Shown: piece after piece, positions 19 to 30,537 of the stretch
Layout of the letters: each line of letters begins with the position of its first letter
Position numbering within the stretch: position 1 is the stretch's first letter
Source: Gammaproteobacteria bacterium
GTDB lineage: Bacteria > Pseudomonadota > Gammaproteobacteria > Steroidobacterales > JACDCP01
Direction of reading: 5' to 3'
Length of the DNA: 44,630 nucleotides
NCBI GenBank assembly: GCA_013817465.1
Contig: JACDCP010000001.1
Coordinates: 1 to 44,630 of the forward strand
Notes under the pieces: model-generated
Database searches by the model: none
Told to the model about the DNA's origin: nothing
What the model saw: the letters and a program-made list of their open reading frames with translations, nothing else
Position numbers and translations under genes: made by a program

Positions 19-1005
19 TCATGTCTGCTCCGGTGTTTCTCCGATCCGATCGATACGGGCACCCTCGCCCGGGGCGACGAGCATCGTCGCCGTCAGCGCC
101 GAGAACTTGTGCATCTTGACGTCACCGGTTTTGTAGATGAGCTCCGCCAGCGCCCCGCCGAGGAACAGAAAGCAGGCCAGCGATATGCACAGCACGCTGA
201 TGCTCGCGATCGTCAGGGAATAATCTCCACGATCGATCAGATAGTAGACGGTGAGCCCCAGGCAAAACATGCCTGCTATCGCAAAGGGCAATGACAAGGT
301 GGCGAACCAGAGCAGCGGCCGCGAAGCGAAGGACGCGATCGTCTTGATGGTGAGCAGATCGAGCAGCACCTTGTAAACCCGTGACAGACCGTATTTCGAC
401 TCGCCGAACTGCCGTGCATGATGGCGCACCTTGACCTCTGCGATATTCGGCCCGGCAACGGATGCCATCGCCGGAATGAAACGGTGCATTTCCGAGTACA
501 GGGGAACATTCCGGATCACCTGCGCCCGGAAGGCCTTCAGCGAGCAACCGTTGTCCTTGATCGGCACGCCAGTCACCTTGCCGATCAGCCAGTTCGCGAT
601 GCGCGACGGCACCTTGCGTGTCAGCAGCTTGTCCTGCCGGTCGAAGCGCCAGCCCACGACGATATCGGAGCCCTGACGGATCCGCTCGATGAACATCGGG
701 ATGTCGGCCGGATCGTTCTGCAGATCGCCGTCCATGGTGACTACGATCTCGCCGCGCGCATGATCGATGCCGGCAGCCATGGCCGGCGTCTGGCCGTAGT
801 TCCGGCGGAATTTAATGACGCGCAGCCGGGGGTCGCCGCGGGCGATTTCGGCAGCTACCGAAAACGTGCGATCGCTGCTGCCGTCGTCGACGAAAACGAC
901 TTCATAATCGAGGCCCAAAGGGCGTATCGCCTTCGAAATTGCCTCATACAGAAGCGCGACGCTCTCTTCCTCGTTATAAAACGGGACGACGACGGACAGA
1001 TCCAT
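19..1005 (-). CDS. GT2-family polyprenyl-phosphate glycosyltransferase (ArnC/GtrB/DPM1-like)
   Basis: 328-aa ORF. N-terminal GT-A motifs 'VVVPFYNEEESV', 'VVFVDDGSSDRT' and 'VTMDGDLQNDP' are followed by two C-terminal hydrophobic helices, the usual architecture of lipid-phosphate sugar transferases. Confidence 0.85.
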   Translation of the reverse strand: MDLSVVVPFYNEEESVALLYEAISKAIRPLGLDYEVVFVDDGSSDRTFSVAAEIARGDPRLRVIKFRRNYGQTPAMAAGIDHARGEIVVTMDGDLQNDPADIPMFIERIRQGSDIVVGWRFDRQDKLLTRKVPSRIANWLIGKVTGVPIKDNGCSLKAFRAQVIRNVPLYSEMHRFIPAMASVAGPNIAEVKVRHHARQFGESKYGLSRVYKVLLDLLTIKTIASFASRPLLWFATLSLPFAIAGMFCLGLTVYYLIDRGDYSLTIASISVLCISLACFLFLGGALAELIYKTGDVKMHKFSALTATMLVAPGEGARIDRIGETPEQT

Positions 1006-1182
1006 GAAAACGTTTCGCCTTTGACGACGGCAATCGAAGAGAATCCCGGAACCTCGCGAGTATACCCGCAGCCGGCGCGCTGCCCGCGTGACGCCGATCG
1101 CAGAACAAGGTATTTGAAACCGTTCGACTATGTCAAACGAGCCTGTCGAGGATCAGCCGCTCGATTTGACGGATCGCAGGAT

Positions 1183-2166
1183 TCACAGACCGATGCGCAG
1201 CCGCAGGTACATCTTGAGGCGAGCGAGCTGTTCGATCTGGCTTGGATAATTCGTGGCCATCGCCGCGATCTTGCGTGGCGGATGCTCGAGATAGATGCAG
1301 GCCAGGGCTTCAAGCCGTGACAAACGCGCGCTGGGGCAGGCTCGCTCGTATCCGTATGCCTCGAGATCCTCGCCCGCCACAGCTTCGAATATCCGGAGCT
1401 CGCGCCGGGATAACATCTGCCGCCATCTGCCTGTATTCTCCGTGAGCACACCTTTGACGAGATTGGCTCGATTACGGATATCCGCCGAGTAGTCGGCGTA
1501 CGACGGATCGGGACTGAGCATCTGCGGGAAGTATTCCACGGCGAGGAAATCACAAAGCTGCCGCACGACCGCTTCCGTGTCGCGCAGCAGGTCTTCGTAG
1601 CGTAGCTGGAAGAACTGCGCCCCGAGCCTCGTCTCGAGCCGCCGCGCAACCGCGAGATGTTGGGACCATCGCCGGGCGGCCGGGTGCACGTGCTTCGGCC
1701 CGAATCGCGCTTTCATCCACGAAACGGCGACGTCGCGTCCGTCACGAACGATATGCACGAAGCGCGCCGAAGGGAAACCTTCGAGGATATAGTCGGCGAA
1801 GAAAAGGTGGTGTGGCGTCTTCTCTCCCCAGCGCGACTTCCCCCGCGCCTCGGTCCACGCTTCCATGATTCCGGCAACGATCCCGTTCAGGTCGAAATGG
1901 CCGTTCGCTTCGATGCGCGCCAGGGCCTCTCGTCCGTCGACGGCCGGGATCCACCTCCTCAGTCGCGGGGTCGCCAGTATGTCGCGCAGAAGTCGTTCGC
2001 GGTTCCGGGGCCTGCGAAGATCGCCGTAGTGGGTAATCCAGGGCAGAAACGTATCGTAGAAGTGCGACTCTCGCGGCACTGCTATTGCGGGATGCCGGCC
2101 GATGATCCGGCTCATCAGCGACGTGCCGGAACGCGGCGCGCCAATGATGATGACCGGTGGCTCCAT
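1183..2166 (-). CDS. sulfotransferase family protein
   Basis: 327-aa ORF. It has a P-loop-like 5'-phosphosulfate-binding motif 'IIIGAPRSGTSLM' at the N-terminus and 'VHIVRDGRDVAVS' about 130 aa later. GAGG lies just upstream of the ATG at 2166. It is a close paralogue of the next gene. Confidence 0.85.
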   Translation of the reverse strand: MEPPVIIIGAPRSGTSLMSRIIGRHPAIAVPRESHFYDTFLPWITHYGDLRRPRNRERLLRDILATPRLRRWIPAVDGREALARIEANGHFDLNGIVAGIMEAWTEARGKSRWGEKTPHHLFFADYILEGFPSARFVHIVRDGRDVAVSWMKARFGPKHVHPAARRWSQHLAVARRLETRLGAQFFQLRYEDLLRDTEAVVRQLCDFLAVEYFPQMLSPDPSYADYSADIRNRANLVKGVLTENTGRWRQMLSRRELRIFEAVAGEDLEAYGYERACPSARLSRLEALACIYLEHPPRKIAAMATNYPSQIEQLARLKMYLRLRIGL

Positions 2167-2183
2167 CCTCGCTGACGTGGCGC

Positions 2184-3218
2184 TCAGAAACCGGCTCGCA
2201 GCCGCACATAGATCAGGGAGAGAACCGCCAGGTGCATCTGGCTTTTTCTGTTCTTCACCAGAGGCACGATTTTGCGCAGCGGATGCTCGATATATTTGTA
2301 GAACCTGCGTTGCGCAGCCGAAAGCCGCGGATTCCCGCAGACCCGATCATAGCCGTGTGCCTCCAGCTCCTTCCACGCCACTGCTTCGAATATCCTGAGC
2401 TCGCGCGGCGACAAGGCCCGCCGCCATTTTTCGGCGTTGCCGGCCATGATCGGCTTTGCCAGATTCGCATCGTTGCGCGCGTCGGTGGGATATCCCTCCT
2501 GCGAGCGATAAAACTTGAGCATGCCCGCGCTGTATTCCTCACCCAGAAAATCGCAGATGCGTCGCACCGTCATTTCGGCGTCGCGCAGCAGATCTTCGTA
2601 ACGCAGCTCGAAATACTGCGCCGGGCCGAGCTTCTCTTCGAGCTCGTGCGCTGCCTCGAGAACCTCCAGCCACCGTAAGGCCGCGGAATATACATGCTTC
2701 GGACCGAACACTGCCTTTTTCCAGGAGACGGCCACATCGCGTCCATCGCGCACGATGTGGATGAACTGCGCCTGCGGAAAATCCTCCAGGATCCGGTCCG
2801 CGAGGAAGAGATGCGCCGGCGTCTTTTCGCCCCAGCGCCGTTTTCCCTGCCCTCTGCACCAGGCCTCCATGATCCCGGCGACAATCCCCCCGAAATCGAA
2901 CCGGCCGTTGGCCTCGATCCGCTCCAGCGCGGCCTGCCTGTCGACACGGGGCAGCCAGTTTCGCAGCACGTCGGTTTGCAGAATGTCGCGTACCAGCCGT
3001 TCGCGGTTCCTGCGCGCGCCCAGATCGCCATAGTGGCGGAGCCAGGGCACGAAGGTCTTGTAGAAATACGATTCGTAGGGGACGGCAATCCCCGGGTGAT
3101 TGCCGATGATCTGGCTGATGAGCGACGTGCCCGAGCGGGGCGTGCCGACGAAAAAGATCGGCGATTCCATTCCCTTGACGGTTGATTTGTCGAAGGCCCC
3201 TTCCATCACGCTCCGCAT
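2184..3218 (-). CDS. sulfotransferase family protein (tandem paralogue)
   Basis: 344-aa ORF with 'FFVGTPRSGTSLI' and 'IHIVRDGRDVAVS', collinear with 1183..2166 over its whole length. The start is uncertain: ATG at 3218, ATG at 3206 (preceded by GGAG-N4) or ATG at 3170 (which aligns with the paralogue's start). Confidence 0.85.
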   Translation of the reverse strand: MRSVMEGAFDKSTVKGMESPIFFVGTPRSGTSLISQIIGNHPGIAVPYESYFYKTFVPWLRHYGDLGARRNRERLVRDILQTDVLRNWLPRVDRQAALERIEANGRFDFGGIVAGIMEAWCRGQGKRRWGEKTPAHLFLADRILEDFPQAQFIHIVRDGRDVAVSWKKAVFGPKHVYSAALRWLEVLEAAHELEEKLGPAQYFELRYEDLLRDAEMTVRRICDFLGEEYSAGMLKFYRSQEGYPTDARNDANLAKPIMAGNAEKWRRALSPRELRIFEAVAWKELEAHGYDRVCGNPRLSAAQRRFYKYIEHPLRKIVPLVKNRKSQMHLAVLSLIYVRLRAGF

Positions 3219-3317: not shown

Positions 3318-4346
3318 ATGCGCATGAACAGTTTCTGGGACGGCCGCACTGCCCTCGTCACCGGCGCCGGCGGATTCACGGGCCGGCACCTCGCCACTGA
3401 GCTGAAGCGACGCGGAGCAAAAGTCAGGGCTTTCATCCGGGAAGGCTCGTCATCGGATTTCGAATCGGCGATCGAGATCTTTTCCGGCGATCTGCTCAGC
3501 GACGATGACTGTCATCGCGCCATGCAGGGAATGGATACGATTTTTCACGTTGCGGCTGTCTTCCGTCGCGTTTCGACGACAACGGAAGAGCTGCGCCGGA
3601 TTCATGTGAACGCCACGGAGCACTTGTTGCGGGCGGCCAAAGAAGCCGGCGCGCGGCGTTTCGTGCACACCAGCACGATCGGCGTGCACGGCGGGCTCAA
3701 GGTCGATCGAGCCGATGAGCAGGGTGAATTCAGCCCGAGTGACGATTACCAACTCACCAAGCTCGAGGGCGAGCAACTCGTCAGCCGGCTGGCGCCCGAG
3801 CTCGGCGTGCCGTACAGCATCATTCGTCCCTGCGCGATCTACGGTCCCGGCGATACGCGCTTCCTCAAATTCATCAAGCCGATCAGCCGCGGCATGTTCG
3901 TCATGGTCGGTCCCGGCGAGGTGCACGGTCACTTCGTCTATATCGACGATCTGGTGGAGGGCTTCCTGCTGGCCGGCGAGAAGGAAGAGGCCTGCGGCGA
4001 GACCTTCATCATCGGCGGCATGCGCAGCCACAGCCTGAACGAGTTTGCGCGCACGGTGGCGGACATCTGCGACGTGCGGCGTTCCGGCATCAGGGTGCCG
4101 GTCTGGCCCGTATACGCGGCCAGTGTCGTGTGCGAGAAAATCTGCAAGCTCATCGGCGTGGAGCCGCCGCTGCATCCGCGCCGCGTGGCCTTCTTCACCA
4201 AGCACCGCTCCTTCTCGATCGCCAAGGCCCGCAGGCTGCTCGGCTACGAGCCGAAGACGGATCTCGAGACCGGGATGAGACGCCTGATCCTCTGGTTCCG
4301 GCAGCAGGGCTACATGCACACGATCCTGGTGCTGGTCGGGATGTAG
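3318..4346 (+). CDS. NAD-dependent epimerase/dehydratase (extended SDR)
   Basis: 342-aa ORF with the Rossmann motif 'ALVTGAGGFTGRHL' and the catalytic YxxxK 'YQLTK'. Its stop codon TAG at 4344-4346 lies 2 nt before the palindromic element. Confidence 0.85.
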   Translation: MRMNSFWDGRTALVTGAGGFTGRHLATELKRRGAKVRAFIREGSSSDFESAIEIFSGDLLSDDDCHRAMQGMDTIFHVAAVFRRVSTTTEELRRIHVNATEHLLRAAKEAGARRFVHTSTIGVHGGLKVDRADEQGEFSPSDDYQLTKLEGEQLVSRLAPELGVPYSIIRPCAIYGPGDTRFLKFIKPISRGMFVMVGPGEVHGHFVYIDDLVEGFLLAGEKEEACGETFIIGGMRSHSLNEFARTVADICDVRRSGIRVPVWPVYAASVVCEKICKLIGVEPPLHPRRVAFFTKHRSFSIAKARRLLGYEPKTDLETGMRRLILWFRQQGYMHTILVLVGM

Positions 4347-4348
4347 TC

Positions 4349-4401
4349 AAAATGGGGACATTCCTGATTTTCGTTTCGAAAATCAGGAATGTCCCCATTT
4401 T
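4349..4401. repeat. palindromic REP/BIME-like element, copy 1 (perfect 25-bp stem, 3-nt loop)
   Basis: AAAATGGGGACATTCCTGATTTTCG (4349-4373) is the exact reverse complement of 4377-4401. It lies between convergent genes, and the methyltransferase stop codon (4383-4385) is inside the right arm. It could act as a bidirectional terminator hairpin. Confidence 0.9.
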
Positions 4402-5120
4402 CGGTCAGCGCGCAGGATGACCGGGGAGCCGAGCAGATGCGTCAGGCCGACTGCCCGTGAGGCCGTGTCGGCCGCGCGCACGACAGCGTTTGCGTCGAGC
4501 GCGCGATGGACGAACATCGGCAGAAAGAACTGCTTGCTGGCTCGCGCCGGCGCGAAGCCGTGCTCCGCCAGAACGCCCGCCAGTTCCCCGGCCGTGAAGC
4601 TCGTGTACGTGCGGGTATTCCCTTCGATGCGTTTCTTGAGCGCGAACAGCAGCGGCGTCAGCGCGTTCAGGCTCCACTTGCTCGGGTAGTCCACGACCAG
4701 CGACCGCGACGACACGCGAGCGAATTCGGCCAGCAGCCGTGGCCAGCGCTCGATGTGCGACAGCAGCCGCACCGATATGACCAGATCGAAGGCCTGATTC
4801 GGGTACGGTAAAGCGAGCAGGTTTCCCACGTCCTGACGGACATTTACGTGTGGGTGGATGCCTCTGAAGCGCTCGTAGCATCGCTCGTCGCTGCTCAATA
4901 TCGTCACGTCGTAGTTGCGCTTCAGCAGCAGCTCGGTGAGCTGGCCATGGCCGCCTCCGACGTCGAGCACCGACCTGCCGTCGAAATCGCTCAGCACGTC
5001 TTCGATGGCGGCCGTCTGTGTGTCGAGGAAGTACTGCCCCGCGCGCCCCTGGAAGCGGGAGGCATAGTCAGCCGAGGCGGTCTCGATATCCGGGGTCTCC
5101 GGCGTTTCTTCTTCTTGCAT
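4383..5120 (-). CDS. class I SAM-dependent methyltransferase
   Basis: 245-aa ORF with SAM-binding motif I 'VLDVGGGHGQLT' and a downstream acidic loop 'VTILSSDE'. The last codons (RKWGHS-stop) are encoded by the palindromic element. Confidence 0.8.
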   Translation of the reverse strand: MQEEETPETPDIETASADYASRFQGRAGQYFLDTQTAAIEDVLSDFDGRSVLDVGGGHGQLTELLLKRNYDVTILSSDERCYERFRGIHPHVNVRQDVGNLLALPYPNQAFDLVISVRLLSHIERWPRLLAEFARVSSRSLVVDYPSKWSLNALTPLLFALKKRIEGNTRTYTSFTAGELAGVLAEHGFAPARASKQFFLPMFVHRALDANAVVRAADTASRAVGLTHLLGSPVILRADRKWGHS

Positions 5121-5140
5121 GGACGGCTCGCCTCAGGAGC

Positions 5141-5226
5141 AAATGGGGACATTCCTGATTTTCGTCTCGAAAGGAGAAAATGGGGACATTCCTGATTTCC
5201 GAAAAAATCAGGAATGTCCCCATTTT
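5141..5226. repeat. palindromic REP/BIME-like element, copy 2 (two direct left arms plus one right arm)
   Basis: Left-arm sequence AAATGGGGACATTCCTGATTTTCG lies at 5141-5164. A second left arm at 5177-5198 pairs with the right arm at 5205-5226 (22 bp). The last nucleotide overlaps the ACP stop codon (5226-5228). Confidence 0.9.
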
Positions 5227-5477
5227 CAGGCTGTCTCGGATTGCTCGGAAGTGTGCCGATCGACGACTTCCCTGATCTTGCCGATGCTTTCCAGGGACTG
5301 AATCTCCCGCATGGAGAGCTTGATGCGGAACGCCTGCTCGAGCGCCGTGATGAGCCGGAAATGATTGAGCGAATCCCAGCGGTCGACGGTCTCTGGTGTG
5401 AGATCGTCGGACAGGCTGGATTCGTCCACCTCGAAAACTTCCGCTATGATCTGCTCAACAGTCCTATGCATCTTCAC
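5226..5477 (-). CDS. acyl/peptidyl carrier protein
   Basis: 83-aa acidic ORF with the phosphopantetheine attachment motif 'DRWDSLNHFRLITALE' (DSL). AAGGAA lies upstream of the ATG. Confidence 0.8.
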   Translation of the reverse strand: MKMHRTVEQIIAEVFEVDESSLSDDLTPETVDRWDSLNHFRLITALEQAFRIKLSMREIQSLESIGKIREVVDRHTSEQSETA

Positions 5478-5608
5478 GTTCCTTCGCCGTCGCGAAGCAC
5501 ATCCTGGGCCGATGAAGCCTGCCTCGCAAATTATGCAGAAACCGCCGTCTGCCGTGATGTTAAGTCTGTCACAAGACCGCGCGGCCTTCTACATGAACGG
5601 CGATTAGC

Positions 5609-6562
5609 ATGAGCCGCTTGATAGTGATCGGCAACGGGACCCTGGCCATGGATTGCCTGGCTATGCTGCACGATCGGCCAGCCGCCGAAATCGTGCTGGT
5701 CGTGTACGATCAGCGGGAGCGTTCCATCGGCGGCGGCGTCGCGGCTTGGTGCAAAAACCACAGCGTGGCCGTGCTGCCGGTAGAGAAAAACATCAATGCG
5801 CCGGAGGTCCTGCAAGGGATCACGGCGCTCGAACCCGACCTGATCTTCAATATCAACAGCTTCTTCATCTTCCGCGACGAGCTGCTCGCGGTCGCGAAAG
5901 GCGGCATGGTGAACTTTCACAATGCCCCGCTGCCGAGATTCCGCGGCGTGCACTCACCGTCCTGGGCCATCATCACTGGCGCGACCGACTACGGCGTCAC
6001 CTGGCACTTCATCGACAAAGGAATCGACACGGGTGACATCATCGCCCAGCGGCCGGTCGAAATCAGCGACGACGAAACCGCGCTCAGCCTGACGATCAAG
6101 TGCATGCTGGCGGGCAAGGCGCTGTTCGCAGAATTCATCGACGATTTGCTCGCGGGGGACTTCACGCGCACGCCCCAGTCCGGCCCCGGCTCGTATTACT
6201 CGCTGCGGGATACGCCGAATGGCGGCTATATCGACTTCAGCGACGACTGCAAGATCATCGACCGGGTCGTGCGCGGCCTCGATTTCGGCCCGGCGACCAA
6301 TACCTTCGTGCACGCGAAAACGCGTTTCCGCGAGCGCGATTTCATCGTCAGCCGCGTAAGCTGTAGACCGCAGGCAGCAACGAAACCGCCGGGCACTGCG
6401 CTCAGCACCGACGCCGGGCGGCTGGAGGTTGCGGCAGGTGACGGGATCGTGTCGATAGAAGACGTGCGGTCGGCCGACGGTGAGCCGCTCACGGTATCCG
6501 GGCTTATCGACAAACTGGGCATTCGCCCGAACGATCGCCTGGAGAACGTACGCGTGAGCTGA
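5609..6562 (+). CDS. formyltransferase-family protein (Fmt / ArnA N-terminal domain-like)
   Basis: 317-aa ORF. 'NFHNAPLPRFRGVHSPSWAIITG' matches the N-x-H-x-S-LLP-x-x-RG formyltransferase core, and 'IDKGIDTGDIIAQ' supplies the catalytic Asp region. A C-terminal beta-barrel-like extension follows. Confidence 0.8.
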   Translation: MSRLIVIGNGTLAMDCLAMLHDRPAAEIVLVVYDQRERSIGGGVAAWCKNHSVAVLPVEKNINAPEVLQGITALEPDLIFNINSFFIFRDELLAVAKGGMVNFHNAPLPRFRGVHSPSWAIITGATDYGVTWHFIDKGIDTGDIIAQRPVEISDDETALSLTIKCMLAGKALFAEFIDDLLAGDFTRTPQSGPGSYYSLRDTPNGGYIDFSDDCKIIDRVVRGLDFGPATNTFVHAKTRFRERDFIVSRVSCRPQAATKPPGTALSTDAGRLEVAAGDGIVSIEDVRSADGEPLTVSGLIDKLGIRPNDRLENVRVS

Positions 6563-6638
6563 AATCCCCTGCCGCAAACCGGCCACGAGGAAAACTCCTC
6601 GCTACCGAACGTCATGCAGATAACCGCGCCGATGAGCG

Positions 6639-6724
6639 GGAAAATGGGGACATTCCTGATTTTCCGTGAGATGTTCTTCGGCTAAGCAAGGGCATCCGGA
6701 AAATCAGGAATGTCCCCATTTTCC
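6639..6724. repeat. palindromic REP/BIME-like element, copy 3 (perfect 27-bp arms, 32-nt spacer)
   Basis: GGAAAATGGGGACATTCCTGATTTTCC at 6639-6665 is the exact reverse complement of 6698-6724. It lies between the convergent formyltransferase and ligase genes. Confidence 0.9.
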
Positions 6725-6753
6725 TCTCGCGCGGTGGCCTGCCACAACAAGCA

Positions 6754-8286
6754 TCAACGCTGCGCGATTTCGGCAAGGGCCTGGCGGTCGATCTTGCCGT
6801 TCAGATTCAGCGGCATGTGGTCGATGCTTTGAATGACCCGCGGCTGCATGTACGCCGGCAGCTTGCGTTGCAGATATTCGGCGAGCGCGTCGCCGACGTC
6901 CTCGTAATCCTCGATGAAAAGGTGCAGCCCGCTCGTGCCCTCTTTGTTGGGGACGGCAATGACGGCAGCCTGAGCGCGACCCGCGAACTCCCGCGCGTGA
7001 TGCTCGATCTCACCGAGCTCGACGCGATGGCCGTCGATCTTGACCTGGAAATCCGCCCGCCCGCAGTAGATGAATTTATTCGCTGCGTTGACGAAGCAGA
7101 TATCCCCGGTGCGATAAGCCTTGCCTCCCGTAACCCCTTCGATATCGACGAAGGCCGCAGCGGTCTTTTCCGGATCGCGCCAGTAATGATCGGTGACCTG
7201 GGGCCCTTGCAGGCACAGTTCTCCCATCTCTCCCTGCGCCACCGGCACATTGCCCTCATCGACGACGTACGCGCTCACGTCCGGCATCGGCCGGCCGATA
7301 GCCACGATGCCGTTGACGGCTTCCGCCCGCGCCGATTCGGCTTCCCAGTCGTAGACCAGGCAGTAGATCGTCGCTTCAGTGGGCCCGTAAACGTTCTGGA
7401 TTCGCGCATTCGGCACGCATTTCGACCAGCCCTCGACCAGCCCCTGCGGCAAGGCTTCGCCGCAGAACTGGCTGTGGCGTAAAGCGGGCAACTCGATCTC
7501 GTCGAAGAAGCGTTCGAGGTACGCGAGCGCCGAAGGCACCATGAGGGCCACCGTCAGCTCATGCTCCTGCAGCAGCGTGACGATGTTCATCCAGGCGATG
7601 CCCTTCTCCGGGAGCACATAGCAGCAGGCGCCGATGCACAGAGGCGCGAACAGCGATACCACCGACAGGTCGAACGTCAGCTCGAACATCTGCAGGAACC
7701 GATCCTCCTTCCGGTAATCGCCGATTTCCGGATCGAGAACGACGTCCATGAAGCTGTTGAGATTGCGGTGGTAGATTGGCACGCCTTTCGGCCGCCCGGT
7801 GCTGCCGGAAGTAAAAAACAGGTAGGCCAGGGAATCGGTGTGTATGTCCGCTAGATCCAGGCTGCTGCTGGCGCGCGAATCGGAGTCCAGCCGCCGCGTG
7901 CGCATGACTTCGATATCCACAGGCAGGGCATGCTCGATGTGCCCGGCACTCTCCTGTCGACCGCTGGCCAGCACCACCTCGAGCCCGGCATCCTCGATGA
8001 TCCGGGCATTGCGGTCCTGCGGATGCTTGTTGTTGAGCGGCACATAGGCCGAGCCGTTCGCCAGGATTGCAAGGATGGAGGCATAGGTGGCGGCGTCATC
8101 CCCGGTCAGCACGCCGATGCGCCGCTGATCGGCAAACCCCGACTCCACGAGGCCGTTGCGTATGCCCTGCGCGAGCGCCGAAAGCTCGCGATACGTGTAA
8201 TGTCGCCCATCCGCATACAGCGCATGGCGCTCGGGGAAAAATTTCGCCACTTCGGCGAACTGGTGAATGACCGTCCTGATCGGCAT
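6754..8286 (-). CDS. DltA-like amino-acid adenylating enzyme (AMP-binding, carrier-protein ligase)
   Basis: The listed 971-aa ORF is trimmed to the ATG at 8286 ('MPIRTVIHQFAEV'). Motifs present are 'AYVPLN', 'LAYLFFTSGSTGRPKGV', 'TFDLSVVSLF', 'NVYGPTEATI', 'YRTGD' and 'GRADFQVKIDGHRVELGEIE'. The start overlaps the upstream stop codon (ATGA at 8284-8288). Confidence 0.85.
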   Translation of the reverse strand: MPIRTVIHQFAEVAKFFPERHALYADGRHYTYRELSALAQGIRNGLVESGFADQRRIGVLTGDDAATYASILAILANGSAYVPLNNKHPQDRNARIIEDAGLEVVLASGRQESAGHIEHALPVDIEVMRTRRLDSDSRASSSLDLADIHTDSLAYLFFTSGSTGRPKGVPIYHRNLNSFMDVVLDPEIGDYRKEDRFLQMFELTFDLSVVSLFAPLCIGACCYVLPEKGIAWMNIVTLLQEHELTVALMVPSALAYLERFFDEIELPALRHSQFCGEALPQGLVEGWSKCVPNARIQNVYGPTEATIYCLVYDWEAESARAEAVNGIVAIGRPMPDVSAYVVDEGNVPVAQGEMGELCLQGPQVTDHYWRDPEKTAAAFVDIEGVTGGKAYRTGDICFVNAANKFIYCGRADFQVKIDGHRVELGEIEHHAREFAGRAQAAVIAVPNKEGTSGLHLFIEDYEDVGDALAEYLQRKLPAYMQPRVIQSIDHMPLNLNGKIDRQALAEIAQR

Positions 8287-9977
8287 CAGTCCTGCTCCGT
8301 CCGTTGCCAGGCGGGAAAGCGCTCCTCCAGCGCCTGAATCTCGTGTCGCCCCCGGGCCTCGTCCCAGCCGAGCCGCGCCGCCATGAATCCGGCGGCAAAA
8401 TCGACGGTCTCGCGGGCCGGCAAGGCAAAAGAGGCGATGCCGGTACGCCGGAGCAGCAGATCCCGCAGGTTCCAGGCCATTTCCTCCGCGATCGCGTGCT
8501 CGAGCTCGGCCCGTATTGCCAGCGGGCAGCCCGGCACCGCTTCCGCAAGCGCCGGGGCCCCGTCTGCCAACGCCATGATCCGGTCGAGGCGGCTGCCGTA
8601 GTGGCTCACCATGCGCTGTACGGCGTCCTCCGACAGCCTCGCACCATACCGCCGGCGAGCCGAATCCAGATAGGCATCCGGACCCGCTCTGAAATCCGCG
8701 CCATAGAGCGGCGTGCGCGCCGAGACCGATTGACCTGCATTCAGTTCCGCATCCCGCACGACGCGATCGATGGCGCATTCTGCCACCTGACGCGCCGTGG
8801 TGTACTTGACGCCGGAAATGACATAAAGCCCGCGCGGCGCGCCCGATCCCGCCGCTGCAACGAGCCGGTAACTCGACTCCAGCTCGGGTTCCGAGTGCTC
8901 CTCGCGACCAGTCGCCGGCAGCAGTCCGAGATGGACCTGCGTGACGTCGTCGATATCGAGATGCAGATCGGGCATGACGCCGTCGAGCTGCGCGAGCGCC
9001 GCTTCGACTTCCGCCGCATCGGGTTGCAAGGCATCGGGACCATCGTCGTCGGGGTAATACCACGTCCCCGCCACGCACCCCTCGCGCCAGGGAGCGACGA
9101 ACAGCAAACGACCCGGTGCCGCAGGCGGCGCGGCCGGCAGGACGCCGAGCGCGCAATCCGCCACGCGGCGCCGCAATACGAGATTCATGCCGCGTGCCCA
9201 TGGCTGGCGACGGACGGGCTCCTGCTGCGGATACCACTCGAGGCTGCCTGCCCAGGGTCCGGTGCAATCGATCACCGCCTCCGCCCCGATCTCCATGGCA
9301 GCGCCGGAACGCTGATCGAACGCCCGCACCCCCGAGACCCGGCCATCTTTCATGACCAGCCCGGTCACTGCACAATGATTCAGCGCGTCCGCCCCCGCAC
9401 TTACGGCTGACATGACGAAGCTCAGCACCAGCCGCTCGGCGTCGTGCGCCTGGGCGTCGAACCAGCGCGCGCCGCCGGTGATCCTGTCGTCGCGCAGCGC
9501 CGGCGCTTTGGCCCTGAGCATTTGTGCGGAAATCAGCTTGCCCGCCGGAATCCGCCGCTCCCCGGCGACGCCAAGATTGCGGTCCGCCGAAAGCAGATCG
9601 TTGAGCCCGAGGCCGGCCCGAAGCGCCAGCGCGCTCTTGCCGGACCCGCGATAGGCGGGCATGACGCACTCGAGCGGACGCACGAGATGCGGCGCGATGC
9701 GCAGCAGCGCACGACGCTCGCGCACCGAGGCGCGCATGCGCGGCACATCCAACGTCTGGAGATAACGAATGCCGCCGTGGATGGTCCGCAGGCTGTTGGC
9801 CGAAGTGCCGCTGCCGAAATCGTCCGCTTCCAGCAGCAGAGTCCGCAAGCCGCGCGAGGCGGCCTCCCAGGCCACGGCGGCGCCGTAGATGCCGCCGCCG
9901 GCAACGATCAGCTCATAGCTCTCGCGCAGGCGAGGGGGAAAATGGGGACATTCCTGATTTTCCGAACATCGTTTCAT
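8286..9977 (-). CDS. FAD-dependent oxidoreductase, glycerol-3-phosphate dehydrogenase (GlpD)-like
   Basis: 563-aa ORF with the dinucleotide-binding motif 'LIVAGGGIYGAAVAWEAASRG', the GlpD signature 'GTSANSLRTIHGGIRYLQ' and a C-terminal 'EEMAWNLRDLLLRRTG'. The only ATG (9977) lies in the spacer of repeat copy 4, so the first ~13 codons are repeat-derived and the true start is uncertain. Confidence 0.8.
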   Translation of the reverse strand: MKRCSENQECPHFPPRLRESYELIVAGGGIYGAAVAWEAASRGLRTLLLEADDFGSGTSANSLRTIHGGIRYLQTLDVPRMRASVRERRALLRIAPHLVRPLECVMPAYRGSGKSALALRAGLGLNDLLSADRNLGVAGERRIPAGKLISAQMLRAKAPALRDDRITGGARWFDAQAHDAERLVLSFVMSAVSAGADALNHCAVTGLVMKDGRVSGVRAFDQRSGAAMEIGAEAVIDCTGPWAGSLEWYPQQEPVRRQPWARGMNLVLRRRVADCALGVLPAAPPAAPGRLLFVAPWREGCVAGTWYYPDDDGPDALQPDAAEVEAALAQLDGVMPDLHLDIDDVTQVHLGLLPATGREEHSEPELESSYRLVAAAGSGAPRGLYVISGVKYTTARQVAECAIDRVVRDAELNAGQSVSARTPLYGADFRAGPDAYLDSARRRYGARLSEDAVQRMVSHYGSRLDRIMALADGAPALAEAVPGCPLAIRAELEHAIAEEMAWNLRDLLLRRTGIASFALPARETVDFAAGFMAARLGWDEARGRHEIQALEERFPAWQRTEQD

Positions 9978-10027
9978 CTTGCTGACGAGGAGCCATTTCT
10001 CAGAAAATCAGGAATGTCCCCATTTCC
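9937..10027. repeat. palindromic REP/BIME-like element, copy 4 (27-nt left arm, right arm with 1-nt deletion, ~39-nt spacer)
   Basis: GGAAAATGGGGACATTCCTGATTTTCC lies at 9937-9963. The inverted arm GAAAATCAGGAATGTCCCCATTTCC lies at 10003-10027 and is one T short. The element sits between the GT4 stop codon (10031) and the oxidoreductase 5' end. Confidence 0.9.
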
Positions 10028-10030
10028 GGC

Positions 10031-11197
10031 TCAGGCACTCTGCGCCTGGAGCGGCGCGTATATACCGCCGAGGCAGTCCTTGAACACGCGATAGCTGTGC
10101 TCGCGCTCGATGAGCGCACGCGCATTGCCGGCCAGGCGTTGCCGCAATGCCGGATCCCGCAGCAAGCGGAGCATCTCCGCGGAGAAGCTCTGTTTATCCG
10201 GGCTCGCGAGCGCCGCCGTGCCAGGTGTCATCACTTGGGTGTGGGTCGGCAGATCGGTGGCGAGCACCGCGACGCCGGAGTCGAGGTAGCTATACACTTT
10301 CATCGGCGTATTGAGCCCGTGCACGCGCGGCGAAACCAGCAGGTCCGCCTGCGACATGTAGCTGCCGAGCCGGCCGACGGGTCGCGGACCGGGGAAATGG
10401 GCATGCCCGTCGATGCCCAGCCGCCCGGCCGCTGCCGTATAGCGCTCGATGTCCGGCGTCGAGCCGCCGATGATGACGAGATGCACGTCGTCGAATTCGC
10501 GGCGCACGAGGCTGAAACTCTCGAGCAGCAGATCGATGCCCTGATACTTCTCCAGATTGCCGATGTACATGACCAGGCGCCCGTCGATATCCAGCGTCTC
10601 GCGCAGGTCTTCCGCCGGCCCGCCGTCGCCGGCGACTTCATTCCGCAACGAAACGTCCTTGAGCACCACGATGCGCCGCGGGTGAAACCGACGCACTTCG
10701 TCCGCCAGCGCATCGCACATCGGCACCACCACGTCCGCGTAGCGGATCGGCAGCGATTCGAGAAACACCAGCAGGCGGCGCAGGAAGCGCAGCCGCGGGA
10801 ACCTGTCGACGATCTGCGTGGACATCATCGAGTCCATGTCGACGATGTAGGGGATCGAACGCAAAGGGCATACTGCCAGCGCCATGAAAGACGCTTCCTC
10901 CACAGCGTGCACCACGTCATAGCGCTTGCGCAGCATGAGGCCGAGGAATTTCCAGAACAGAAAGAAATCGCAGACGATCTTGCGCAGCGACAGGCCAGGC
11001 GGAACGTGCTCGATACGGATCCACGGCCGGATGCGATGGATGCGCTCGCTCGGCAGTGTCTCATCGCGCCCGAGATGCAAGGTCAGCAGCTCGACGTCAT
11101 GGCCGGACTCGACGAGCGCGCGCAGCAGCAGGTTGACGGCGATGGGGGTGCCCCGATCCTCATAGAACGGGTGCGGCGCCACCACGAGGATTTTCAT
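10031..11197 (-). CDS. glycosyltransferase family 4 (GT-B)
   Basis: 388-aa ORF. It starts 'MKILVVAPHPFYEDRGTPIA', and the C-terminal half has 'YIGNLEKYQGIDLL' and 'LLVSPRVHGLNTPMKVYSYLDSGVAVLAT' (EX7E-type region). The ATG overlaps the upstream stop codon (ATGA at 11194-11197). Confidence 0.85.
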   Translation of the reverse strand: MKILVVAPHPFYEDRGTPIAVNLLLRALVESGHDVELLTLHLGRDETLPSERIHRIRPWIRIEHVPPGLSLRKIVCDFFLFWKFLGLMLRKRYDVVHAVEEASFMALAVCPLRSIPYIVDMDSMMSTQIVDRFPRLRFLRRLLVFLESLPIRYADVVVPMCDALADEVRRFHPRRIVVLKDVSLRNEVAGDGGPAEDLRETLDIDGRLVMYIGNLEKYQGIDLLLESFSLVRREFDDVHLVIIGGSTPDIERYTAAAGRLGIDGHAHFPGPRPVGRLGSYMSQADLLVSPRVHGLNTPMKVYSYLDSGVAVLATDLPTHTQVMTPGTAALASPDKQSFSAEMLRLLRDPALRQRLAGNARALIEREHSYRVFKDCLGGIYAPLQAQSA

Positions 11198-19492: not shown

Positions 19493-20524
19493 TCAAAAAC
19501 GTTTAGAACGGTACTCTTTAAACGAGAAAAGCATTTTTCCCAGAATCTTCAGCCATGAATCGTATTTCTGGCTCGTTTTTTTGAGCTCGGTGTGATAGCG
19601 GATAAAATCGACCGCCCGCCACAGCTGCTTCTGAAATCCGCTCGGCTCGCAGTCCCCTACCGTGGACTCGATCCGATATCCGAGTTGACTCAGCATACGG
19701 CCGCCGATGCTTTCCAATCGCAGTACGGTCCCGACGTCAAAATATTCCGGCCATTTAAGGGTGTTCCGCCTGATCGCGCCCAGCTCGCCTGCCGCCAGGC
19801 GCTTTCGGTCGGGGTTCTGCGGCATTCTCGACTGCAACACTTGCTCTGAGAATTCGAGGCGAAGAAATTCGCAGACTTCTGCCATCCGGGCTTGCGGATC
19901 TCGCGTCAATTCTTCGTACTTGAGCTCCATATACCTGTCGCCGAGCTTCGAGCCGGCCGTCTGCCCCATTTCCACGAGTTTCTTCCAGCGGTAGATAATC
20001 AATTCCGGACGCCTTTTCTGGCGCCGGGTGATCGAGCATGCGACTTCCCGCCCATCGCGAATCATGTGGATGAACCTGGCGCCCGGGAATATCCGCGATA
20101 GCATGTCGATGTGCTGTACGTGATCCGGTGTTTTCTCGCACCAACGTTTCTTGTTCTGCGCCGCTGCGAGAAAGCCGAGAATACCCTCGAACACGCCCGC
20201 TACGCTCCGAGGCTGTGCCCTCCAGTCCTCCGGCAGCTCTGGCTTCTTGCCGGCGTATATCCTTCGGAGTACCGGCATCTGGTCGATCGCAAATCGCCAG
20301 TACGCGCGAAAATTCTTATCGATATTAAGATCGCCGAAACGGTCGGCTTGGGCGATGATGTAGGGCATCATCAGCGTCTCGTGCGGCACTGCGAACAGGT
20401 CCGGGTGGCGCCCCAGACTGTCGAGCATCATGCTGGTGCCGGAGCCGTTCATGCCCACGACAAAGACCGGTTCGCTCACTGCTCGTTCAATCAAGATTTC
20501 TGACCTGCCTTTCGTCCCTTGCAT
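19493..20524 (-). CDS. sulfotransferase family protein
   Basis: 343-aa ORF with 'VFVVGMNGSGTSMM' and 'FIHMIRDGREVACS'; it is a paralogue of 34420..35406. The listed ATG overlaps the upstream GT2 gene by 38 nt. In-frame TTG (20494) or GTG (20479) starts are alternatives. Confidence 0.8.
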   Translation of the reverse strand: MQGTKGRSEILIERAVSEPVFVVGMNGSGTSMMLDSLGRHPDLFAVPHETLMMPYIIAQADRFGDLNIDKNFRAYWRFAIDQMPVLRRIYAGKKPELPEDWRAQPRSVAGVFEGILGFLAAAQNKKRWCEKTPDHVQHIDMLSRIFPGARFIHMIRDGREVACSITRRQKRRPELIIYRWKKLVEMGQTAGSKLGDRYMELKYEELTRDPQARMAEVCEFLRLEFSEQVLQSRMPQNPDRKRLAAGELGAIRRNTLKWPEYFDVGTVLRLESIGGRMLSQLGYRIESTVGDCEPSGFQKQLWRAVDFIRYHTELKKTSQKYDSWLKILGKMLFSFKEYRSKRF

Positions 20525-23962: not shown

Positions 23963-25111
23963 ATGCGATCCCCAGCCAAGAGGATTACGATCCAGCATGT
24001 TGAGCCGAATTCTCCACGTTCAGCACCCCTGGATGAGCTCTGCCGACGCAGAACGATTTCGTGTGGTGACCAAGGCCGCGAGAAATTCAACCAGATCAGC
24101 AGCCAGATCGCTTTCGGTGCAGACGTGCTGCGGTTGATTGCCGGCTCCGGTCGCAGCGGCACGACTTGGCTTTTGGACGCGCTTGCCGAGGCTAACGGAC
24201 TTCGTCCTGTTTTCGAGCCTTTGCACACCGATACATCATCGGTGGGCAGAAAGTTTGGTCATGCCTATTTGACCCGGAATTCTAACTGCGCCGAGCTTAA
24301 AGCCATGTTGTCGGCGGCCGCAGAAGGCGCCTTGAACACGATTTGGACCGACTACCGCATGAAACCGGGCCGGCTGCGCATTGGGCTAAAACATTTTCGA
24401 TCGCCGGCCGAGCTCAGGGTGCTGATGCATAAATGGCGTGAACTTGCCCATCGTTACGCGGCAGGTCGGGGAAAAAAAACAAGGTGTGCCACGATTGTAA
24501 AATGTATCCGCGCAAATCTCATGCTCGATTGGATTCATTCCAGCATCGACGCACGGATCGTTCTCCTGATGCGGCATCCCGGTGCAGCGGTCGAATCGCG
24601 GCTCAGGTTTGCCGCCCACTGGGATCCATTCCCTCTTCTGAAAAAGTATCGAAACGACACCGCTCTCATGAGCGGACCCATCAATCGACAGGCAGCCCGG
24701 ATGAATCGGGCAATGACTCGCACGGAAGCGCTGACGGCGATCTGGTGTATAGAGAATCTCGTTCCCGCAGCACAAGCCGCTTCCAATGGCTATCTGGTTA
24801 CATTCTATGAGGAATTGCTCGAGCGACCGGAGACCGAGTGGCCACGTGTCGCCCAGGGTCTGGGCCTGGCTGAGGTTCCATCTGCGACAATATTGCACAG
24901 GCCCTCGCAGCAGGCCGCCACGCGTTTACATCGGGGAAGCGCGATCGGGGAGAGTTATGTGAAAGATTATGGTAGCTGGAACGCTCGCCTGGCCAATGAC
25001 GATCTGGCGCAGGTTGACGCGATACTGCGGGAATTCGGCGTGGATTTCTACACAGTCGCCGAAGCTCGCCCGAACATCGAGGCATTCTCCTTGCGGTTTT
25101 TAGAAGGCTAA
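23963..25111 (+). CDS. sulfotransferase-family protein (P-loop type)
   Basis: Motifs 'LRLIAGSGRSGTTWLLDAL' and 'IVLLMRHPGAAVESRL' are present. The start is uncertain: the listed ORF begins at 23807, the first plausible ATG is at 23963, and a GTG at 24125 lies immediately before the P-loop. Confidence 0.6.
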   Translation: MRSPAKRITIQHVEPNSPRSAPLDELCRRRTISCGDQGREKFNQISSQIAFGADVLRLIAGSGRSGTTWLLDALAEANGLRPVFEPLHTDTSSVGRKFGHAYLTRNSNCAELKAMLSAAAEGALNTIWTDYRMKPGRLRIGLKHFRSPAELRVLMHKWRELAHRYAAGRGKKTRCATIVKCIRANLMLDWIHSSIDARIVLLMRHPGAAVESRLRFAAHWDPFPLLKKYRNDTALMSGPINRQAARMNRAMTRTEALTAIWCIENLVPAAQAASNGYLVTFYEELLERPETEWPRVAQGLGLAEVPSATILHRPSQQAATRLHRGSAIGESYVKDYGSWNARLANDDLAQVDAILREFGVDFYTVAEARPNIEAFSLRFLEG

Positions 25112-25168
25112 CGTCTTCGCTGGCAAAAGTACCCGCCTCCCCATCTTTCATCCTGGCAGAGAGCGCCG

Positions 25169-26098
25169 ATGTCCCAGCTACCAGATGCGTTGCACGTAGG
25201 ATTTTCGAAATGTGCTTCAACCTTTCTGCAATCCTTTTTTAATGAACATCCGTCGGTTTTCCTGGTCAATCAATCGCACTTCTTTTCTCCATTTGAATAC
25301 AGGCATTACGATTCCGGCAAAGAGGTCTATTCCGCCCTGTTTCGAGATGCCGAACCTGAGAAGGTCAAAATAGAAAGTGACGAGCACATCGTGCTGCCGC
25401 TCTTTCATCCTGTATTGCGTGCAGCAGCAACCACGCTGGCATCTGTAAAAGAAGTTTCCGGAAAGATCCGCGATATCCAGCCCAACGCAAAAATTATCAT
25501 AGTGATTCGTAATCAAGTCGATTTGATTGCTTCACGATACTCAGAGTACATACTGGGTGGCGGGAAGTCCGATTTCGACCTCTTCGTCAAAGAGTATCTT
25601 CGATGCAGCAGGGACGGAGTCAACTACTATCAAAATTACTATTCGCAGATCATTGATATTTTTAATAATGACTTCCTGCCGAACAGGGTTCTCGTGCTTC
25701 TTCAAGAGGAGCTTGCGCACGATGAGGCGAAGATCCTGAGGCAACTGTGCGGTTTCCTGAATATTGGTGTGCCTCAGCCTCATCGTCGGGGGTTGCGATC
25801 GAGGCGTGTGGGATTGTCCGACCTGGGAATTAAAGTTGTGCGGTCCTTCAATAATGCGGTGATCGAACGGCAAGAACAGTCGTACACGAAGGCGGTGGCA
25901 AAGATTCCTTATCCGTTCTATAAGGCTAGCTTGAGAGCGATGAGGCTCGTTGATTACTATCTGCCGAAAAGCGTGAAGGGCGATAAGAACAAAGTCCTGA
26001 CCGCCGATATCGTGGAAAGAATACGTGGCGAATTTCGCGAGGACAACACGCGACTGGCTGAGCTACTGGGTAAGGATCTCGCTTCGCTCGGCTACTGA
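25169..26098 (+). CDS. sulfotransferase family protein (Sulfotransfer_1/3-like)
   Basis: 309-aa ORF with 'LHVGFSKCASTFLQSFF' (PKxGTT-type loop) and 'IIVIRNQVDLIASRYSEY'. It is visibly AT-rich: 21 G+C in the 60 nt at 25201-25260. Confidence 0.75.
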   Translation: MSQLPDALHVGFSKCASTFLQSFFNEHPSVFLVNQSHFFSPFEYRHYDSGKEVYSALFRDAEPEKVKIESDEHIVLPLFHPVLRAAATTLASVKEVSGKIRDIQPNAKIIIVIRNQVDLIASRYSEYILGGGKSDFDLFVKEYLRCSRDGVNYYQNYYSQIIDIFNNDFLPNRVLVLLQEELAHDEAKILRQLCGFLNIGVPQPHRRGLRSRRVGLSDLGIKVVRSFNNAVIERQEQSYTKAVAKIPYPFYKASLRAMRLVDYYLPKSVKGDKNKVLTADIVERIRGEFREDNTRLAELLGKDLASLGY

Positions 26099-30167: not shown

Positions 30168-30537
30168 GATTTTGACCCCCCCGAGTCTAATGTAAGGCCG
30201 AAGGCCGGTTCGTATGGCGGCGACGGCAGTTCTCTCAATGAGTTGAGAACACGCTGGACCTTGCGCGTTATGGTAGATTATCGAAGCGGATTTGCGTTTT
30301 CCGACCATTTCAATGCAGTCCCTGTAGCCTGAGGGAACCGCAAAGCACCGTCGAACGACAAATAACCCAGTGCTGCAACTCCGCTATCGTAGGCTGCGAA
30401 CCCGTAGACCGGAAGCTTTGCGTCCCTGCTTTTCAACAGGTTTGCCCTCGGGCGGAAAATTTACGTAATGTCGGACTTAAAGTCAACCGAAAGCCTGGAA
30501 GTGTGTGAACTGCGTCACTATTTGGCGACAAATCGGT

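Follow-up and report, generated by a model that had tools for sequence, protein, structure and literature searches.

Probable REPIN elements of a repeat family common to Steroidobacteraceae and related gammaproteobacteria

A stretch of 44,630 nucleotides from a gammaproteobacterium of the order Steroidobacterales (GenBank assembly GCA_013817465.1, contig JACDCP010000001.1, positions 1 to 44,630; hereafter called the window) carries nine copies of a short palindromic unit, which make up four hairpin-capable elements (E1–E4) at gene junctions. These units are very probably repetitive extragenic palindromic (REP) sequences of a family common to Steroidobacteraceae and related gammaproteobacteria, and the four elements REP doublets forming hairpins (REPINs) associated with a REP-associated tyrosine transposase (RAYT). 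A probability of roughly 0.85 is assigned to this reading, in which the copy number and the RAYT of the source organism itself would follow by extrapolation from the sequences of relatives. The initial annotation of the window had taken the units for a REP family that might be mobilised by a RAYT, a proposal supported by the abundance of the unit in relatives and by the unit-flanked Y1 transposase found there.

Results

Nine repeat units in four hairpin-forming elements

The whole window was searched with the 27-mer GGAAAATGGGGACATTCCTGATTTTCC, allowing up to three mismatches, and 100 dinucleotide-preserving shuffles served as control. Exactly nine sites were obtained (five on the plus and four on the minus strand), all within positions 4347–10028, compared with none in the 100 shuffles. 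The inner 21-mer AAATGGGGACATTCCTGATTT is an invariant core that is identical in all nine units. The 17-mer ATGGGGACATTCCTGAT is likewise exact in nine of nine, and its single match elsewhere in the window (500–516, three mismatches) is at chance level. The coordinates and arm spacers reported initially were essentially right (measured spacers: 3, 6, 30 and 34–38 nt), and so was the statement that the window holds no further copy. The unit sites are as follows:

Plus strand: 4347–4373, 5138–5164, 5175–5201, 6639–6665 and 9937–9963
Minus strand: 4377–4403, 5202–5228, 6698–6724 and 10002–10028

They are arranged in four elements:

E1, 4347–4403: doublet with perfect 25-bp arms (4349–4373 and 4377–4401) and a 3-nt loop, between the convergent epimerase and methyltransferase genes; hairpin of -40 kcal/mol on either strand
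E2, 5138–5228: three units, at 5138–5164 (+), 5175–5201 (+) and 5202–5228 (-); the second and third pair perfectly over 23 bp around a 6-nt loop (hairpin of -50 kcal/mol on the minus strand), the first being an extra direct copy; located between the methyltransferase start (5120) and the stop codon of the acyl carrier protein (ACP) gene (TGA, 5226–5228), which overlaps the 27-nt unit at its outer bases
E3, 6639–6724: doublet between the convergent genes of the formyltransferase-like protein and the AMP-ligase, with perfect 28-bp arms (6639–6666 and 6697–6724) separated by 30 nt of unrelated sequence; hairpin of -67 and -58 kcal/mol
E4, 9937–10028: doublet of 9937–9963 (+) and 10002–10028 (-), with 26-bp arms that are 96% complementary and a spacer of 34–38 nt, between the glycosyltransferase (GT) stop codon (10031–10033) and the gene of a flavin adenine dinucleotide (FAD)-dependent oxidoreductase; hairpin of -55 kcal/mol

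Two of the junctions are convergent, two co-directional and none divergent. As RNA, the four elements have predicted folding energies of -40 to -67 kcal/mol, with z-scores of -7.5 to -10.5. Taken by itself, the 27-mer likewise forms a small imperfect dyad (top strand: -12.1 kcal/mol, z = -3.4; bottom strand: -7.4 kcal/mol), in agreement with the earlier description of each arm as a dyad in its own right. Its within-unit hairpin, AAAT-GGGGA-CAT-TCCTG-ATTT, is an imperfect form of the conserved hairpin of the family, with one G.G mismatch and one G.T pair. An Rfam scan of the elements returned only sub-threshold models of eukaryotic microRNA precursors, which represent generic long-hairpin noise.

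Gene junctions in the window were counted from the list of open reading frames (ORFs) and the Pfam gene calls. The four elements occupy four of six consecutive junctions among about 36, a clustering with a probability of 0.005–0.008 by a rough, post-hoc estimate.

Distribution and arrangement of the unit in related genomes

The exact 21-mer was searched in the species-representative genomes of GTDB, and loci from relatives are designated by L-numbers. More than 95 stretches contain it. They belong to metagenome-assembled genomes (MAGs) that carry the label Steroidobacteraceae, Woeseiaceae or Gammaproteobacteria, with at least 26 assemblies represented. The best-sampled MAGs hold 5–12 separate 8-kb loci each among the matches listed. 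A REP family had been expected to recur outside the window, and the unit is abundant in relatives. The further claim that it is confined to 5.7 kb holds for the window and fails beyond it, the family being dispersed genome-wide in relatives.

The 95 loci and the window together contain 226 units at up to three mismatches. Neighbouring units show the '+-' polarity in 90 cases and the '-+' polarity in none, with 17 tandem arrangements. In the '+-' pairs, the outer ends read AAATGGGG and the inner ends CTGATTT. Since one unit type occurs with one junction polarity, the family is REPIN-like and not like the bacterial interspersed mosaic elements (BIMEs) that had originally been proposed; the unrelated spacers add to the evidence on which the BIME organisation was given up. 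Core-to-core spacer lengths cluster at 6 nt, at 16 nt (the spacer itself being palindromic) and at 34–44 nt (unrelated sequences).

The repeat is modular in many genomes. A nested form, in which the spacer holds a second unit, reads A-GCTAGC-AAAAGGGGACGCGCCTC...loop...GAGGCGCGTCCCCTTTT-GCTAGC-A', and most apparently single units are A-CTAG-B composites. The linker that joins the unit to a second unit in many relatives is GCTAGC or CCTAGG; no such linker is present in the window.

With respect to genes, 27 of the 226 units (12%) lie within long open frames rich in G+C at third codon positions (GC3-rich), compared with 63% of random positions, and several of these 12% are probably upstream of the real start codons. 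A convincing upstream ORF could be assigned to 111 outer ends. The stop codon starts 0–5 nt before the unit, or overlaps its first bases, in 41 of them, while a further 18 ORFs end at the unit's own TGA and three at the linker TAG. With 41 of 90 upstream stops starting within 5 nt, where about 6 were expected, the excess has a p-value of about 1e-24 under a naive uniform null and a crude ORF criterion.

Several further observations were made in the relatives. Larger nested palindromes, to which the unit contributes only the outer module, occur at L025:2860–3090, L010, L032, L063 and other loci. They have the form A-GCTAGC/CCTAGG-B (AAAAGGGGACGCGCCTC)...B'-linker-A', and the one in L025 is perfectly palindromic over about 215 nt and contains three nested GGGGAC units. 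Across transposase lineages, the CTAG linker is constant while the units vary; this linker may be the counterpart of the GTAG tag. Doublets at L007:2630–2753, L063:4410–4500 and L064:2702–2863 lie deep inside very long GC3-rich open frames and represent either true in-frame intragenic insertions or two neighbouring genes fused by a stop-poor element. Breaks of synteny between two MAGs coincide exactly with the elements in L010, L055 and L069. In L069, segments resembling L010 and inverted segments resembling L055 meet at copies of the unit, which points to rearrangement mediated by the repeats or to joins made during assembly. A tie between element clusters and glycan loci was considered and rejected, as the densest cluster in a relative (L049) lies among housekeeping genes, its neighbours encoding a DUF2799 protein, a Leu/Phe-tRNA protein transferase and a trypsin-like peptidase.

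A Y1 transposase flanked by the unit

The candidate partner enzyme was found via genes bracketed by facing units. In L079, an ORF at 4167–4898 lies between facing composite units at 4084–4104 (+) and 4900–4920 (-). Its product contains the motifs PNHVHFV ... WQGRFK ... RYVERNALRA, matches Pfam Y1_Tnp (PF01797) with E = 7.7e-15 and 55.5 bits (cut-off 23), and has NF047646, REP-associated tyrosine transposase, as its sole NCBIfam match. Its HUH and tyrosine motifs align with those of E. coli RayT at a protein identity of about 20%. Transposases of this type comprise about 225 aa and have a C-terminal extension. An ortholog in L091 is 90% identical, with the same right flank, and a protein search yielded 4874 homologs at E <= 1e-20, which some sources name REP-associated tyrosine transposase. 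Two other probes gave no match and were too narrow: a phmmer search with E. coli RayT on the six-frame ORFs of the loci, and a strict HUH...Y..NP pattern applied to the ORFs, the actual protein having YVERNA.

In four further genomes with long contigs (L098–L101), the transposase gene is placed between A-CTAG-B and B'-CTAG-A' without exception; the A variant matches on both sides of the gene, and the neighbouring genes differ. A metagenome scan guided by the protein alone gave another 80 loci (L102–L181). Essentially all homologs with at least 70% identity and available flanks have ATGGGGACATTCCTGATTT about 130 nt upstream (+) and 10 nt downstream (-). Homologs with 50–65% identity are flanked by variants such as ..CCTCATTT, GGGGACACTCCCC, GGGGTCAGACCCC, GGGGGCAGCCCCC, AAATGGGGACACTCCCCATTT, AAATGGGGTCAGACCCCATTT, TAATGGGGGCAGCCCCCTTTT and AAACGGTGCCAGGCACCGTTT. 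L140 (50% identity) and L131 are flanked by A units that lack the B module, which is the type present in the window. The search for a Y1 gene (RAYT/TnpA_REP) proposed in the initial annotation has in this way led to one that is flanked by the window-type unit in many related genomes.

The hairpin within the unit is maintained as the sequence changes. Among 13 distinct variant units, the 9-bp within-unit helix is kept, with 89.7% of cells paired compared with 80.6% after shuffling (a level reached by none of 500 shuffles). Compensatory changes occur in three pairs, and the covariation score is 0.346 versus 0.162 for shuffled units, with lower values for slid controls.

In L098–L101 and L079, the neighbours differ although the transposases are 70–88% identical, only L079 and L099 sharing neighbours (DUF2238 and DUF3857). 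The transposase gene and its flanking units have apparently moved as a whole, or the surroundings have been rearranged. The flanking genes on either side end on the terminal TAA of the unit.

Gene context, empty sites and remodelled gene ends

Genes in the window were assigned with Pfam. Those around the elements are:

3318–4346 (+): epimerase
4383–5120 (-): S-adenosylmethionine (SAM)-dependent methyltransferase (Methyltransf_25/11/23)
5226–5477 (-): ACP
5609–6562 (+): formyltransferase-like protein
6754–8289 (-): AMP-ligase
8286–9977 (-): FAD-dependent oxidoreductase, glycerol-3-phosphate dehydrogenase-like (DAO and DAO_C, domain from residue 23)
10031–11197 (-): GT

The closest homolog of the FAD oxidoreductase (P0001, 68% identity) lies in a fully syntenic cluster, L097, whose gene order is identical to that of the window cluster. 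There, the GT/FAD junction measures 4 nt (TGA-TCAG-GTG, with P0001 starting at the GTG), the ACP/methyltransferase junction 11 nt and the methyltransferase/epimerase junction 4 nt, so that E4, E2 and E1, respectively, are absent. The gap corresponding to E3 contains a different hairpin of the GGGGTCAGACCCC type. L097 has variant units of its own, TAATGGGGACATTCCTCATTG, in a cluster of four at 19954–20062 arranged + + - -. A second comparison is provided by L025, which is filled with the nested palindrome described above, versus L072, where the orthologous site is an empty, short convergent gap. Because the compared genomes are distant, the borders of the insertions are approximate.

The units of the L097:19954–20062 cluster read (C/T)AATGGGGACATTCCTCATT(G/A), in which a G17C change repairs the G.G mismatch of the window unit. 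The cluster is followed by a terminator-like hairpin, GGGGGTCAGACCCC.

The description of all copies as intergenic or touching gene ends is broadly right, with the nuance that two elements contribute coding sequence. In the methyltransferase gene, the TGA stop and the five codons before it (KWGHS) come from the right arm of E1; the protein ends in ...LRADRKWGHS* in the window versus ...LRADRVAQG* in the L097 ortholog. The ORF of the FAD oxidoreductase crosses the left arm of E4. Its sole ATG/GTG/TTG start is the ATG at 9975–9977, inside the E4 spacer, and the N-terminus MKRCSENQECPHFP... is read from E4, giving a protein of 563 aa versus 548 aa in P0001 (15 codons longer). Judged from the predicted proteins, two gene termini are remodelled in the window, namely the C-terminus of the methyltransferase and the N-terminus of the FAD oxidoreductase.

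Elsewhere in the window, three adjacent minus-strand ORFs (19–1005, 1183–2166 and 2184–3218) lie upstream of the cluster at 19–3218. The Pfam scan covered the latter two, which are paralogous sulfotransferase genes (Sulfotransfer_3). Their DNA similarity with a 1-kb period shows up as the direct repeats D2–D4 and D7. A cyclic di-GMP-I riboswitch aptamer (RF01051, 72.5 bits, gathering score 35) is present at 30371–30456 (-), upstream of a 448-aa ORF (28962–30308, -), and L047 has two such aptamers in tandem (601–686 and 841–925). The region 25001–26000 has a GC content of 0.49 compared with about 0.6 elsewhere; the drop falls on the ORF 25169–26098 (+, 309 aa), whose GC3 is about 0.55 and which may be of foreign origin within the polysaccharide locus.

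Discussion

Weighing the REPIN interpretation

Several observations weigh against assigning the elements to REPINs spread by a RAYT. No GTAG tag, which classical REPs have, is found in the flank profile of 224 units. The arm spacers are unrelated among the elements, whereas classical REPINs tend to keep theirs. The transposase of L079 and its homolog in L140 score 63.7 and 75 bits against NF047646, both below the equivalog cut-off of 80 bits. No RAYT gene was found in the 44.6-kb window, and a PDB sequence search with the transposase gave no match. Finally, at an orthologous site in L010 and L065, the arms differ by 0–2 mismatches while the spacers are unrelated and the flanks 73–77% identical, a pattern for which selection or gene conversion would be as good an explanation as insertion more than once.

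This last pattern, arms conserved between flanks that have diverged by about 25%, also suits the proposal that the elements are host-selected RNA structures, acting as bidirectional intrinsic terminators, mRNA 3'-end stabilisers or stop-proximal translation modulators. They would not have been spread by a transposase, and a common factor that binds RNA or DNA would account for their sequence identity. Their position directly behind stop codons, at convergent or co-directional junctions only, and the great stability of the hairpins fit this proposal as well. A simple terminator scan, which requires a GC-containing stem followed by a T run, is passed by E1 (both strands) and E2 (minus strand). 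It is not passed by E3 and E4, because their loops are too large. However, E2 and E4 lie in junctions that measure only 4–11 nt and are evidently co-transcribed in the relative, which leaves no room for a new promoter, so that efficient termination would silence the downstream genes. Moreover, a terminator has no need of 21 invariant nucleotides, and neither the co-varying tie to a Y1 transposase gene nor the filled and empty sites are explained. As the origin of the elements, this proposal is improbable; as a secondary, exapted function, it is compatible with REPIN insertion.

Miniature inverted-repeat transposable elements (MITEs), here taken as terminal inverted repeats left by a decayed insertion sequence of the DDE type, whose transposase would mobilise them in trans, were an alternative in the initial annotation. 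Inverted terminal arms of 23–28 bp, small size, numerous copies and intergenic location would all be accounted for. Inspection of the window sequence, however, revealed no direct repeats flanking any of E1–E4, and hence no target-site duplications. The interiors are unrelated and vary in length, being 3 to about 38 nt long in the window and reaching 300 nt in relatives; single and tandem units are common; and the gene found between the arms encodes an HUH/Y1 enzyme and not a DDE transposase. The MITE alternative is unsupported and seems very improbable.

Equally little can be said for the units being sites of a DNA-binding protein (operators) or of the DNA-uptake machinery (uptake signal sequences), an explanation to which only slight weight is given. 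It would draw on the near invariance of the 21-mer across many species and on the dyad symmetry of every unit. In Neisseria, uptake sequences are likewise found behind genes as inverted pairs. The units are far too sparse and too patchily distributed for this role: all nine copies fall within 5.7 kb, the remaining 39 kb holds none, and coding DNA is almost free of them. An operator would be expected in promoters and not behind stop codons, and the variable arm spacing speaks against a single bound complex.

Cassette boundaries, that is, attC-like recombination sites shuffling single genes of a glycan cluster, are hardly credible: the elements do bracket one- or two-gene modules, and their imperfect inverted repeats with variable centres resemble attC, but core sites of the GTTRRRY/RYYYAAC kind are missing from the sequence, the bracketed genes lie in both orientations, gene order is unchanged in the element-free syntenic L097, elements also occur among unrelated housekeeping genes (e.g. 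in L049), and no integrase lies nearby. Two further candidates were rejected, a CsrA-type GGA hairpin since the GGA is buried in a 25-bp duplex, and CRISPR (clustered regularly interspaced short palindromic repeats) since the units are inverted, not direct, and form no array.

Proposed mechanism

As REPINs, the elements would be non-autonomous, their partner being a RAYT-type Y1/HUH tyrosine transposase such as the one flanked by inverted units in related genomes. By analogy with RAYTs and with the IS200/IS605 family of insertion sequences (IS), this enzyme would recognise the small imperfect hairpin of the unit on single-stranded DNA and would cut and rejoin the strand beside it, which would allow copies to spread without target-site duplications. 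Copies would then persist where they do little harm, directly behind the stop codons of convergent or co-directional genes. Of six junctions in a row within a glycan or lipid-modification operon, four may have received a copy in this way. The gene pairs GT/FAD oxidoreductase and ACP/methyltransferase, formerly tight and probably translationally coupled, would now be split by hairpins of -50 to -55 kcal/mol.

A role of the hairpins as terminators or mRNA stabilisers, as suggested initially, is plausible. On the mRNA, they would probably constitute 3'-exonuclease barriers, partial terminators or RNase III sites, and would probably uncouple neighbouring genes. Because the E2 and E4 junctions are co-transcribed in the relative and strong termination would silence the genes downstream, partial termination, 3'-end protection or RNase III processing, combined with lost translational coupling, appears the likelier outcome.

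Relation to known systems

REPINs and RAYTs have been described in Pseudomonas fluorescens SBW25 and other bacteria (Bertels & Rainey 2011; PMC3116915). The present family resembles those of the SBW25 type in its short imperfect palindromic unit, its inverted doublets that form one long hairpin, its extragenic location and its singlets and small clusters, and also in having a unit-flanked Y1/HUH transposase gene whose lineage co-varies with the unit sequence (PMC3116915). It differs in lacking GTAG, in its highly variable spacers, which in relatives often hold a nested second unit, in an outer 21-mer that is almost unchanged across many species, and in a transposase that scores below the NCBIfam equivalog cut-off for RAYTs.

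The closest published description, compared by motif and organisation, is that of the TIRtrons and their TIR-associated tyrosine transposases by Di Nocera et al. (2013; PMC3733652). That paper describes RAYT genes that have either REPs on their flanks or, in TIRtrons, inverted repeats containing the motif GGGGWSAS. In TIRtrons, for example those of Stenotrophomonas maltophilia and Acidobacteria, RAYT-like genes are likewise accompanied by non-GTAG inverted repeats with a GGGG(W)(S)A-type motif, and these repeats form moderately abundant families that occur as singlets, dimers and groups, some of them self-complementary. The GGGGWSAS motif is fitted by the variants GGGGTCAG and GGGGACAC, while GGGGACAT of the window departs from it at the last position. 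The paper also reports that most REPs between convergent genes are located less than 20 bp from both ORF ends and that REP termini often provide the stop codon, which matches the stop-codon behaviour of the present family.

The REP/BIME system of E. coli with RayT (rayT/yafM; Messing et al. 2012; PMC3479197) shares an extragenic palindromic unit behind genes, whose hairpin is recognised by an HUH tyrosine enzyme. E. coli BIMEs, however, alternate Y and Z REP types in both polarities with defined linkers, whereas one type and one polarity are present here. IS200/IS605 elements (IS608, ISDra2) have Y1/HUH chemistry, subterminal recognition hairpins and insertion without target-site duplication in common with the family; they differ in that the window elements are gene-less and the transposase has not multiplied together with the repeats. 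No literature pairing Steroidobacter with REP was found.

It is doubtful, if conceivable, that the family forms a distinct, unnamed class of REP system, defined by a divergent RAYT clade, a modular repeat, stop-codon targeting and local hopping. Features in keeping with such a class would be the clade of RAYTs of about 225 aa below the curated cut-off, the near-invariant 21-nt outer module across dozens of species, the lineage-specific inner modules attached via the CTAG linker, and the TAA or TGA-A end of the unit, which often serves as the stop codon of the neighbouring gene. Proliferation by local hopping would account for six neighbouring junctions having received four insertions. The family is ordinary as to the type of element and where it lies, its doublet arrangement, its partner gene and its effects on gene ends. 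Slightly unusual are the near invariance of the 21-nt outer module over many species, also seen independently via protein-based retrieval, the modular A-CTAG-B arms, the very variable spacers, the divergence of the transposase from the curated RAYT model and the local burst of four insertions. None of these unusual features takes the family outside the known REP/REPIN-RAYT class.

Significance

The analysis places a previously undescribed repeat family of soil Steroidobacteraceae-like bacteria in the REP/REPIN-RAYT class and identifies its partner transposase clade. It also offers clean examples of what appears to be gene remodelling by repeats within an exopolysaccharide or lipid-modification operon, namely a new C-terminus, a new N-terminus with its start codon, and broken translational coupling. 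The hairpins are places where MAGs of this group are likely to show assembly breaks, wrongly called gene starts or stops, and rearrangements. The finding opens no new biological question. If insertion is truly directed to stop codons, the family would provide a natural tool for the study of target choice by HUH enzymes and of the tuning of operon expression by stop-adjacent hairpins.

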